64,000 nt of DNA, taken from the IMG/VR virus record IMGVR_UViG_3300050491_000011. One strand, given 5' to 3'. The translations under genes were made by a program, and so were the position numbers. Of this stretch, positions 23,687 through 25,581 are shown piece by piece (positions within the stretch are counted from its first letter, which is position 1; each line of letters begins with the position of its first letter). The notes under the pieces were generated by a model. That model saw only the letters and a list, made by a program, of their open reading frames with translations, had not been told where the DNA came from and made no database searches. Origin of the DNA: a virus. Its lineage: Duplodnaviria; Caudoviricetes.

Positions 23687-23721
23687 CATCCGTAAAAAGT
23701 TACGGAAGTAGTAAATAAGAT

Positions 23722-23795
23722 GTTCGAACAGCGCCGCGCGTAGCCGCCTCTTCGTAGTGCCGCCGCCCTCTGGGCATTTCGCGGCCTGTTCGAAC
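23722..23795 (+). ncRNA. structured RNA of unknown class (16-bp closing helix)
   Basis: GTTCGAACAG/CTGTTCGAAC and GCCGCG/CGCGGC pair perfectly, enclosing 41 nt; 5 nt before tRNA-Asn. Confidence 0.5.
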
Positions 23796-23800
23796 TCTAT

Positions 23801-23877
23801 TCCGCGATAGCTCAGTTTGGTAGAGCAAACGGCTGTTAACCGTTGGGTCCCTGGTTCGAGTCCAGGTCGTGGAGCCA
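23801..23877 (+). tRNA. tRNA-Asn(GTT)
   Basis: Canonical cloverleaf; AACGG-CTGTTAA-CCGTT anticodon arm; G73; encoded CCA. Confidence 0.95.
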
Positions 23878-23892: not shown

Positions 23893-23969
23893 GGTGAACT
23901 TAGCTCAGTTGGTAGAGCAGCGGCAGGCTTAGCTGTGTGTCCTAGGTTCGATTCCTGGAGTTCACCCCA
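23893..23969 (+). tRNA. non-canonical tRNA: His-type G-1:C73 acceptor, GCT triplet in an aberrant loop
   Basis: G-GTGAACT/AGTTCAC-C-CCA; normal D and T arms; anticodon loop AGGCTTA lacks U33; short variable loop, so not a Ser-type body. Confidence 0.7.
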
Positions 23970-24009: not shown

Positions 24010-24684
24010 ATGTCCGTAGATATCAGTACCTATCTGATCGCTACACCGCTTCCAGTATCTGAAACTAATCCAGTCGCCTTAGAGCTGCTTGGATCTCTGG
24101 CATTGATTCAATGTCCTGAGGTTGTTTCTATGCTCGAGGACGGATCTGTTCAATTCACCGCACCTACTAAAGGTGCGTCTAGTAAGAGTACTCACCGTAC
24201 TCGAACTGAATGGAAGGAACCAGAGTACTGGGCGTTGTCTAGCGCAGCTAAACACTGGAGCCGGCAGACGATGACTGTTACTAAAGTCAACTCTGCTCAG
24301 AAGGTGGTGGTTGCACAGATTCATGTCAAGGATGCTACAACGCCTCCTTTGAAAGTGTTCTGGAACAAAGGTAAGTTGACGATGGGTTTCCGCGGTAGTT
24401 TCGCTGATCCTACAATCGTTAACTATACGCTTCACACTGACGTACCCTTGGGCGTTCCGTTCAAGATCAGTATCGGTGTGACAGCCAGCGGTTCAGTGTC
24501 TGTCAACGCGTCATGTCAAGGTGTTCCTTCTCTGAAGAACGCGTTGAAGTTGAGCAGCACTTGGTTTGACCGGGTCTTGCAGTTCCATGGTGGCGTCTAC
24601 AACCAAGTCGACTACACCGACCTTACCTCTGACGAGGATGGTTCGATCTGCATTATCAGTGAGTTGTCTACAACTCACGAATGA
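24010..24684 (+). CDS. polysaccharide lyase family 7 (alginate lyase-like)
   Basis: RTRTEW (RxE), AQIH (QIH) and FHGGVYNQ (YFKAGxYxQ variant) motifs in the right order; no signal peptide. Confidence 0.8.
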   Translation: MSVDISTYLIATPLPVSETNPVALELLGSLALIQCPEVVSMLEDGSVQFTAPTKGASSKSTHRTRTEWKEPEYWALSSAAKHWSRQTMTVTKVNSAQKVVVAQIHVKDATTPPLKVFWNKGKLTMGFRGSFADPTIVNYTLHTDVPLGVPFKISIGVTASGSVSVNASCQGVPSLKNALKLSSTWFDRVLQFHGGVYNQVDYTDLTSDEDGSICIISELSTTHE

Positions 24685-24690
24685 TTCAAT

Positions 24691-24866
24691 GACTTCTATA
24701 GCTCAGTTGGTAGAGCGCCGTTATCTCATGTGTCGCGGGTTCGAGTCCCGTCATCGCTCAATGCTGGTGTCTTTCGAGACAGATGGCAAGCGGTGTAGCT
24801 CAGATGGTAGAGCAATGAAAACATACATGACGGAGGCCAGAGGTTCAATCCCTTTTGGAAGTCCCA
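24691..24866 (+). ncRNA. nested double tRNA: His-type outer tRNA with a circularly permuted tRNA inside its anticodon loop
   Basis: 24691-98 pairs with 24856-63 (8 bp) then CCA; 24789-95 pairs with 24752-58; 24718-22 with 24829-33; 24815-18 with 24726-29. Two D arms, two T arms, UUCG linker. Confidence 0.75.
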
Positions 24867-24953: not shown

Positions 24954-25030
24954 GCAGCCATAGTTCAGTTGGTTAGAATGCTCGCCTGTCACGCGAGAGG
25001 TCGGGGGTTCGAGTCCCCCTGGTTGCGCCA
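24954..25030 (+). tRNA. tRNA-Asp(GTC)
   Basis: Canonical cloverleaf; CTCGC-CTGTCAC-GCGAG; G73; CCA. Confidence 0.95.
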
Positions 25031-25293: not shown

Positions 25294-25444
25294 GAGCTTA
25301 TCAGAACGAGTGGCGGAATTGGTATACGCGGGGATCGCATCCCCAGGTCAGTGAATTGACACTGGCTGCCTGTCTATCGGTGGGCTAACGCCATTGCGGG
25401 TTCGAATCCCGCCTCTGAAAGGATAGACCATAGCTGATAAGCTC
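25294..25444 (+). ncRNA. tRNA-Leu-derived RNA without an anticodon, closed by an 11-bp terminal helix
   Basis: GAGTGGCGGAATTGGTATACGC Leu-type D arm; GGGAT-CGC-ATCCC stub; variable-arm hairpin; GCGGG-TTCGAAT-CCCGC T arm; GAGCTTATCAG/CTGATAAGCTC ends; no CCA. Confidence 0.65.
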
Positions 25445-25455
25445 AACGTTTTAAT

Positions 25456-25581
25456 GATTCCTGTAGCTCAGTAGAAGAGCGCCCCCACAACGGTTCGATT
25501 CCGTACGTACCCGACTTCGGTCTGGGTATGACTTGGAAAACATGGGGGAGGTCGGTGGTTCAATTCCATCTGGGAATCCCA
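25456..25581 (+). ncRNA. tRNA-like RNA: His-type acceptor, anticodon loop replaced by T-loop + UUCG module
   Basis: G-ATTCCTG/TGGGAAT-C-CCA; CCCCCA/TGGGGG anticodon stem enclosing ACGG-TTCGATT-CCGT and TACCC-GAC-TTCG-GTC-T-GGGTA. Confidence 0.75.

Follow-up and report, generated by a model that had tools for sequence, protein, structure and literature searches.

The tRNA cluster of phage T4 encodes two small stable RNAs that are not tRNAs, species 1 and 2 (rnaC and rnaD), which are processed together with the phage tRNAs and whose function is unknown. The 77-nt RNA described here is likewise co-located with phage tRNAs.

Irregular tRNAs with an extra G at position -1 (G-1) have been described by Mukai et al. 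(2017; PMC5389517). Here, two G-1 tRNAs bearing the Thr anticodon GGU, which stem from soil metatranscriptomes, were more readily charged than tRNA-His by the HisRS of E. coli, and no insertion of histidine was found in vivo. The 'tRNA1' (GGU) of that study resembles the 77-nt RNA in its G-1, its non-His anticodon and its position in a soil-microbe polycistron of irregular tRNA-like RNAs, and its behaviour, charging by HisRS with no insertion of histidine, is the behaviour that we infer for the 77-nt RNA. However, tRNA1 has GUG at positions 35-37, where it is perhaps read by HisRS, whereas the 77-nt RNA lacks GUG. Furthermore, some of the RNAs described by Mukai et al. have 8/4 folds, in contrast to the 7/5 fold plus G-1 found here. 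Acidobacteria were named as their source and toxin-antitoxin loci were linked to them, whereas the 77-nt RNA is found in a jumbo phage, and the two were compared by description and not by sequence.

Mimics of the acceptor half are also known from plant RNA viruses. Their tRNA-like structures TLS-His, TLS-Val and TLS-Tyr can form an N-1:N73 pair and do not decode (PMC9976931, PMC8127992), and all of them are HisRS substrates (PMC9976931). In contrast to the 77-nt RNA, which is a free-standing canonical cloverleaf gene of a DNA phage, these structures are pseudoknot-built 3' ends of RNA genomes.

A mismatch between acceptor identity and anticodon, combined with a replaced U33, has also been described for Candida tRNA-Ser(CAG) and Streptomyces tRNA-ProX, which carry G33 and A33, respectively; in the Candida tRNA, decoding is curtailed yet present (PMC11415595). 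Both keep a purine at position 37 and have been shown to decode, whereas for the 77-nt RNA no signal of misincorporation was found. Furthermore, a dedicated synthetase, ProRSx, exists for tRNA-ProX, whereas no HisRS is encoded in the phage record or in a complete relative. In elongator tRNAs, U33 and a purine at position 37 are near-universal, and exceptions at position 33 are known from initiators, which have C33, and from a small number of natural mistranslators (PMC5041475, PMC11415595). The RNA described below would extend the irregular G-1 tRNAs and the non-decoding tRNA mimics already known.

Location and fold of the 77-nt RNA

The DNA analysed here, a stretch of 64,000 nt that is referred to as the window, is part of an IMG/VR virus record (G000) of 188 kb with a completeness of about 75%. 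Its source is an uncultured phiKZ/Psa21-like jumbo phage, a giant soil phage. ARAGORN calls three tRNAs in the window, namely Asn(GTT) at 23801-23877, 'Ser(GCT)' at 23894-23969 and Asp(GTC) at 24954-25030. An extra 5' G at 23893 extends the second of these to a tRNA-shaped gene of 77 nt with a His-type acceptor (23893-23969, plus strand), which runs from G-1 to A76 and is supported by ARAGORN, the Rfam tRNA model, covariation and homologues. Against Rfam tRNA (RF00005) it scores 46.2 bits (E 8.8e-8), with the 7-nt loop skipped in the alignment; the adjoining tRNA-Asn and tRNA-Asp reach 65-70 bits with the same model.

G-1 and the 5' acceptor strand GTGAACT (23893-23900, plus strand) pair with positions 23959-23966, resulting in an 8-bp acceptor stem that includes G-1:C73. 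The 3' acceptor strand AGTTCAC is followed by C73 (23966) and an encoded CCA (23967-23969), the same in all variants (23959-23969, plus strand). The D arm reads GCTC-AGTTGGTA-GAGC and is followed by A26, the anticodon stem GCGGC/GCTGT includes two G.U pairs, and the T arm is CTAGG-TTCGATT-CCTGG. The bases for the tertiary contacts are complete as judged from the sequence and the Rfam alignment (U8, A14, G18-G19, G15:C48 and the T-loop TTCGA), and R15:Y48, T54-T55-C56 and A58, canonical elements of the L-shape, are likewise present.

The initial annotation had described a tRNA of normal length with a perfect 77-nt cloverleaf, and this holds in the sense of zero mismatches: 22 of 22 cloverleaf pairs are standard, with three G.U pairs counted in, and G-1:C73 is an additional pair. 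Its other structural statements are borne out as well. The anticodon loop at 23925-23931 (plus strand) reads AGGCTTA, that is A32, G33 in place of U33, the triplet G34-C35-U36, U37 and A38. The long variable arm of serine tRNAs is absent, since the variable loop GTGTC has 5 nt only, and the acceptor is of the His type, with G-1 (23893) pairing C73 (23966) ahead of an encoded CCA.

A shifted hairpin that is favoured by ViennaRNA and pairs loop bases 33-38 with bases 43-48 was rejected. By inspection, it is complete only in one relative (L007), and one or two U-U mismatches interrupt it in the window as well as in another relative (L006), whereas for the cloverleaf 100% of cells are paired.

An array of tRNAs and His-ended tRNA-like RNAs

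The 77-nt RNA lies in a terminator-bounded array of about 2.3 kb that is dense in tRNAs and tRNA-like RNAs and ends at a hairpin with a T run resembling a terminator (25986-26004, plus strand; terminator search). Its constant upstream neighbour, separated by a spacer of 15-16 nt, is the canonical tRNA-Asn(GTT) called by ARAGORN (23801-23877, plus strand), which serves as an internal control for the evolution of a decoding tRNA in the array. Downstream, a PL7 alginate lyase gene (24010-24684, 224 aa; Pfam PF08787, 143 bits) starts 40 nt after the 77-nt RNA in the window; it is 68% identical to the copy in Pseudomonas phage Psa21. A nearby ORF fragment is similar to the phiKZ-type split RNA polymerase beta subunit. 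Except for these two, the flanking ORFs matched no Pfam and no informative PHROG family. The host is presumably a Pseudomonas, judging only from the relationship to Psa21 and from the alginate lyase.

Two larger tRNA-like RNAs in the array share the acceptor end of the 77-nt RNA. The first (24692-24866, plus strand), identified by an acceptor scan and by partial matches to Rfam tRNA and YrlA, has G-1:C73 and an encoded CCA and lacks a His anticodon. The second (25457-25581, plus strand), identified by the same scan, also has G-1:C73 and an encoded CCA and matches Rfam tRNA with 39 bits over 122 nt. In five of the five assemblies with a full array (the window, L006, L007, L105 and L107), both keep G-1:C73-CCA while their acceptor stems covary. 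Since the canonical tRNAs Asn and Asp of the array carry G73 and the non-canonical RNAs G-1:C73, this signature marks the non-canonical RNAs of the array. Thus, three array RNAs keep the His acceptor signature and none of them is able to read a His codon. The 77-nt RNA is best read as one of several His-ended tRNA look-alikes in a phage array, of which it is the simplest member (77 nt, canonical cloverleaf).

In both larger RNAs, a second module bearing a T arm replaces the anticodon loop. The match of the RNA at 24692-24866 to Rfam YrlA (Y RNA-like) amounts to 43 bits and is below threshold (gathering score 69).

Occurrence in related phages

The 77-nt RNA was found in six assemblies, the window as well as L006, L007, L097, L105 and L107, and always 15-16 nt 3' of the tRNA-Asn. 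L006 belongs to a complete genome of 253,921 bp with terminal repeats (G001) and L007 to a second phage genome record (G002); L097, L105 and L107 are metagenome contigs. The six copies fall into three sequence variants with the loops AGGCTTA, GGGCTTT and TGGCTTT.

A pattern search anchored on the loop retrieved the same clade only, both in IMG/VR and in the JGI/ENA metagenomes (L097, L105, L107), and over 185,579 species genomes it gave chance matches only, which lack a tRNA shape. With a covariance model of the 77-nt RNA, scores above 100 bits were obtained for G001 and G002 only among 22 related virus records, nearly all of jumbo-phage size, and the remainder were ordinary tRNAs at about 60 bits. 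BLAST against 50,697 phage records revealed no close homologue, and the top match was a Pokkenvirus UCU tRNA with 75.6% identity. Since the matches are confined to six assemblies, the 77-nt RNA is specific to one narrow phage clade.

Some apparent relatives were dismissed. A BLAST match in Xoo-sp13 turned out to be a plain tRNA-Phe. A loop-spanning 10-mer of L006 also occurs in the anticodon arm of the Psa21 tRNA-Ser(GCT); it lies in a shifted register, is absent from the related phage L026 and is imperfect in the window, and it was taken as a chance match. Pairing of the loop with a complement elsewhere in the array was also considered and rejected, since of the two AAGCC sites in the array neither is conserved in L105.

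Selection on the fold

Comparison of the three variants gave seven substitutions at paired sites, and in seven of seven the pairing is kept. Two of the changes are double compensatory ones, from A-U to G-C at 4:69 and from G.U to U-A at 27:43. In simulations with equal numbers of random substitutions, the probability that all pairs survive was about 5e-5 to 2e-3, depending on the transition bias. The pairing of the cloverleaf is maintained by selection. The covarying stems and the recurrence in five further assemblies therefore indicate that the 77-nt gene is more than a chance resemblance.

The loop gave a different picture. Its core GGCUU is constant in the three variants, with positions 32 and 38 varying, and such constancy has a chance probability of about 0.13, which is not significant. 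Three variants from one narrow clade form a shallow tree, and because of this no selection is claimed on the loop sequence; the invariance of G-1:C73 rests on the same shallow tree.

The strength of the constraint can be judged against the neighbours. Between the window and L007, identity is 81% for the 77-nt RNA, 86% for the tRNA-Asn and 64% for the third codon positions of the PL7 gene, and between the window and L006 the respective values are 89.7%, 100% and 85.8%. In the latter comparison the 77-nt RNA differs at 8 of 78 positions, whereas the tRNA-Asn is identical, so that a working tRNA is under tighter constraint than the 77-nt RNA.

The rate observed between the window and L006, which is near that of third codon positions (89.7% versus 85.8% identity), would fit a relic. 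According to this explanation, a former decoding tRNA has lost its anticodon and persists as a processing module, a cloverleaf that serves as punctuation for RNase P and 3' processing between the tRNA-Asn and the downstream RNA or mRNA, with the loop and the His-type end being functionless themselves. The location inside one terminator-bounded unit, with the tRNA-Asn 15-16 nt upstream and, in the window, the PL7 gene 40 nt downstream, agrees with such a role, as does the non-significant invariance of the loop core. However, the double compensatory change at 27:43 lies in the anticodon stem, which is dispensable for RNase P and the 3' processing enzymes. Moreover, G-1:C73-CCA stays constant in three non-canonical array RNAs while nearby stem pairs change, a constancy that punctuation alone would not call for. 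The RNA is also kept in L105 despite the absence of the PL7 gene there. Taken together, we regard a mere processing relic as unlikely, although it deserves consideration.

Origin of the His-type acceptor end

The acceptor end was compared with genuine phage tRNA-His(GTG) genes (L173, L013 and L080). Over the acceptor stem and the -1:73 pair, 12-14 of 16 positions match these genes, in comparison to only 1-5 of 16 when the adjacent tRNAs for Asn and Asp are compared. From position -1 to 26 the agreement extends to 22-26 of 28 positions. The 77-nt RNA thus shares with tRNA-His(GUG) the G-1:C73 pair, the encoded CCA and a nearly identical acceptor stem, D arm, position 26 and variable loop. On the contrary, its anticodon arm matches at 5-9 of 17 positions only, i.e., it is unrelated, and GUG, U33 and a purine at position 37 are all lacking. 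G-1:C73-CCA is invariant in all assemblies and variants, whereas GTG, the His anticodon, is absent from the loops of all three variants. The other occurrences of this 5' pattern in IMG/VR go together with a GTG anticodon. The 77-nt RNA is therefore read as the body of a tRNA-His in which the anticodon arm would have been replaced or rewritten.

In the related jumbo phages L013 and L080, a real tRNA-His is found beside the tRNAs for Asp, Asn and Tyr. In the complete relative G001 no canonical tRNA-His is present, and because of this the 77-nt RNA is not a spare tRNA-His. The tRNA-His(GTG) of L013, a related 315-kb phage (L013:233-310), has the G-1:C73 pair above a U1-C72 mismatch that tops its acceptor stem.

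The anticodon arm is closest to the UCU tRNA of Stenotrophomonas phages of the genus Pokkenvirus, with 11-12 of 17 positions matching. This 'tRNA-Arg' (TCT), at L121:602-678 in phage Piffle (MZ326857.1) and at L178:25-100 in phage Pokken (MN062186.1), itself has an encoded G-1 pairing C73, an encoded CCA and U20 at the place of A20, the determinant for ArgRS. Its anticodon loop CTTCTAA is canonical, and it is conserved between the two species, with covariation in the T stem. It is a candidate for a tRNA of hybrid His/Arg identity that could decode AGA.

Predicted charging

HisRS is among the few synthetases for which the anticodon arm hardly matters in the charging of an RNA. Micro- and minihelices with G-1:C73 are charged by HisRS, and transplanting this pair confers histidine acceptance (PMC9976931). 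In E. coli in vivo, however, the anticodon contributes to HisRS recognition (PMC9976931), and charging of the 77-nt RNA may therefore be poor. By analogy to these helices and to the G-1 tRNAs of Mukai et al., the 77-nt RNA is probably charged by the HisRS of the host.

Neither HisRS nor a TROVE/Ro protein is encoded in G000, which is about 75% complete, or in the complete genome G001. Thg1 and RtcB are absent from G000, the sole record searched for them and about 75% complete. Neither the flanking ORFs nor the genes searched for yielded a partner protein.

Charging with serine would be expected if the label given by ARAGORN were right and the RNA were an ordinary tRNA-Ser(GCU) that reads AGY codons. 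The main determinant of bacterial SerRS is the long variable arm (reviewed in PMC9976931). The real tRNA-Ser(GCT) genes of the relatives Psa21 (L021) and L026, which have this arm and measure 89-92 nt, lie just 5' of the same PL7 gene, and the triplet GCU is present in all three variants of the 77-nt RNA. However, the latter has no variable arm of more than 10 nt, C73 instead of G73, as well as G33 and U37, and its sequence is unrelated to that of the genuine serine tRNAs in the relatives. Since the long variable arm is lacking and the discriminator is C73, charging with serine is very unlikely, and an ordinary serine tRNA is the explanation to which we give hardly any credence. The label tRNA-Ser(GCU) assigned by tRNA finders would consequently render analyses of phage tRNA repertoires or codon usage that are built on it wrong.

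It is also conceivable that the anticodon arm is recognized by another synthetase or enzyme, for instance ArgRS, which reads C35 and U36 or G36, so that the RNA would be a relative of AGR/AGY-box tRNAs and not of tRNA-His. Here, C35 and U36 are present, and the arm is nearest (11-12 of 17) to the UCU 'tRNA-Arg' of the Stenotrophomonas phages Piffle and Paxi, which is the top match over the whole length as well. On the other hand, position 20 of the 77-nt RNA is U, in place of A20, a major determinant of bacterial ArgRS (PMC9976931), and C73 is found as the discriminator. In Pokkenvirus, too, the tRNA combines G-1:C73 with U20. Recognition of this kind is very improbable.

Decoding ability

The anticodon loop has the usual 7 nt; G33 and U37 are present in all three variants, so that U33 as well as a purine at position 37 are missing. 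G33 alone is no proof of inactivity, since mistranslating tRNAs with G33 or A33 exist.

In the conserved ORFs of the phage, AGC and AGU occur at about 22 per 1000 codons and make up roughly 37% of the Ser codons. When Psa21 (G015) and a further relative, G003, were aligned by tblastn, Ser was found opposite these AGY codons at the expected frequency. They stand opposite His in 1-3.5% of cases, compared to about 1% for TCN codons, with a Fisher P of 0.085 in the larger set. The ORFs in this test were called mechanically and some are perhaps in the wrong frame, to which an excess of Arg and Gly opposite AGY points. The test rules out a reassignment of AGY to His, whereas rare misreading would lie beyond its reach.

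The initial annotation had proposed two alternatives, a decoy that is inactive on the ribosome and has a nuclease-resistant loop, or a tRNA that inserts histidine at Ser codons. The second would take the form of a throttled miscoder, charged by HisRS and reading the Ser codons AGC and AGU at a low level, with G33 limiting the rate of a programmed Ser-to-His mistranslation during infection. The combination of a His-type acceptor identity with a conserved GCU at positions 34-36 suggests this. In addition, natural mistranslators with a mismatched identity carry bases other than U at position 33 (G33 in Candida tRNA-Ser(CAG), A33 in Streptomyces tRNA-ProX; PMC11415595), and in a second phage lineage, Pokkenvirus, G-1:C73 occurs in a tRNA whose anticodon is UCU and whose loop is canonical. 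Against it, U37 removes the purine stack and also any t6A or m1G at position 37, and neither G000 nor G001 encodes a dedicated HisRS. The AGY codons of the phage itself sit where its relatives have Ser and not His. With such heavy use of AGY in its own genes, efficient insertion of histidine would therefore hit the proteins of the phage itself. Furthermore, the nearest experimental analogue was charged and did not decode. We therefore consider Ser-to-His miscoding improbable. Should it nevertheless decode, the 77-nt RNA would be the first mistranslating tRNA encoded by a phage. In its most far-reaching form, this would be a programmed mistranslator that HisRS charges through G-1:C73 and that places histidine at AGC and AGU, held to a low rate by G33 and U37, thereby diversifying or damaging proteins during infection, and which together with the Pokkenvirus UCU tRNA would constitute a class of phage tRNAs putting histidine into the AGN box; for this we see quite a small chance.

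Of the first alternative, the inactivity on the ribosome is favoured, given the missing U33 and purine 37, the lack of an AGY-to-His signal and the precedent of the G-1 tRNAs (PMC5389517). The decoy part fares less well. Nucleases of the colicin E5 type cut the four GUN tRNAs, and the canonical tRNAs of the array (Asn and Asp, with Tyr in relatives) are three of these four. A decoy has to be recognized, and since the His anticodon is gone the idea is weak for anticodon nucleases. With the recognized anticodon absent, the RNA is neither a replacement for tRNA-His nor an obvious bait, and a decoy for anticodon nucleases is retained solely as a speculative sub-case.

Proposed role

The explanation that we favour, with moderate confidence and on the basis of sequence comparison, is that the 77-nt RNA is a non-decoding derivative of tRNA-His that would be matured like tRNA-His, probably charged by the HisRS of the host and acting off the ribosome. 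It would be cleaved from a polycistronic precursor, and RNase P would leave G-1 in place because G-1 pairs with C73. The host HisRS, which needs little beyond G-1:C73, would then histidylate it. Presumably unable to form a normal U-turn or to stack on the codon duplex, the product would be used little or not at all in the ribosomal A-site. Instead, its place of action could be away from the ribosome, where it would serve as the ligand or sink of a factor recognizing the acceptor/T-arm half of a tRNA. Candidate partners would be HisRS, EF-Tu, host enzymes directed at the CCA end or at the acceptor, or a phage protein, and the conserved loop may provide a second contact.

As a compact and easily transcribed substrate, the 77-nt RNA offers a way to ask whether phage tRNA look-alikes are aminoacylated, what binds to them and whether they are sinks for host factors directed at tRNAs.

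Variation within the array

Immediately 5' of the tRNA-Asn, an 85-nt element (23716-23800, plus strand) folds into a long branched hairpin with -39.2 kcal/mol and a z-score of -4.5. Among the window, L006 and L007 it is 95-99% identical, which exceeds the identity of the adjacent tRNAs and of the PL7 gene, and it has no match in Rfam. It may be a leader or the first RNA of the array.

The content of the array differs between the assemblies. The PL7 gene lies within it in the window, L006, L007 and L107 and is missing from L105, and therefore it was either inserted into the array or deleted from it. In L105, the 77-nt RNA is followed by a structured spacer of about 80 nt (L105:1544-1625) and then by the next tRNA-like RNA. 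An additional irregular tRNA-like gene is present between the 77-nt RNA and the PL7 gene in L006 (3876-3963) and L007 (1745-1835), the former being called by ARAGORN as an 88-nt 'tRNA-Leu(cag)' with the anticodon at position 28, and nothing is found at this place in the window. This indicates that the content of the array turns over quickly.

A normal tRNA-Tyr(GTA) is part of the arrays of L006 (5227-5312), L105 (2296-2379) and L107 and is absent from the window. At about the corresponding place, the window has a tRNA-like sequence (25296-25425, plus strand) with a D arm, a hairpin loop ATCGCAT, a long insert and a T arm with TTCGAAT, which is not called by ARAGORN.

In the canonical tRNAs of the array, too, the base 5' of position 1 can pair with the discriminator, as U-1.G73 in the tRNA-Asn (23800/23874 in the window) and as C-1:G73 in the tRNA-Asp (24953/25027). 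The same is found in L006, L007, L105 and L107, and an eighth acceptor pair is therefore possible in the precursor of every array RNA.
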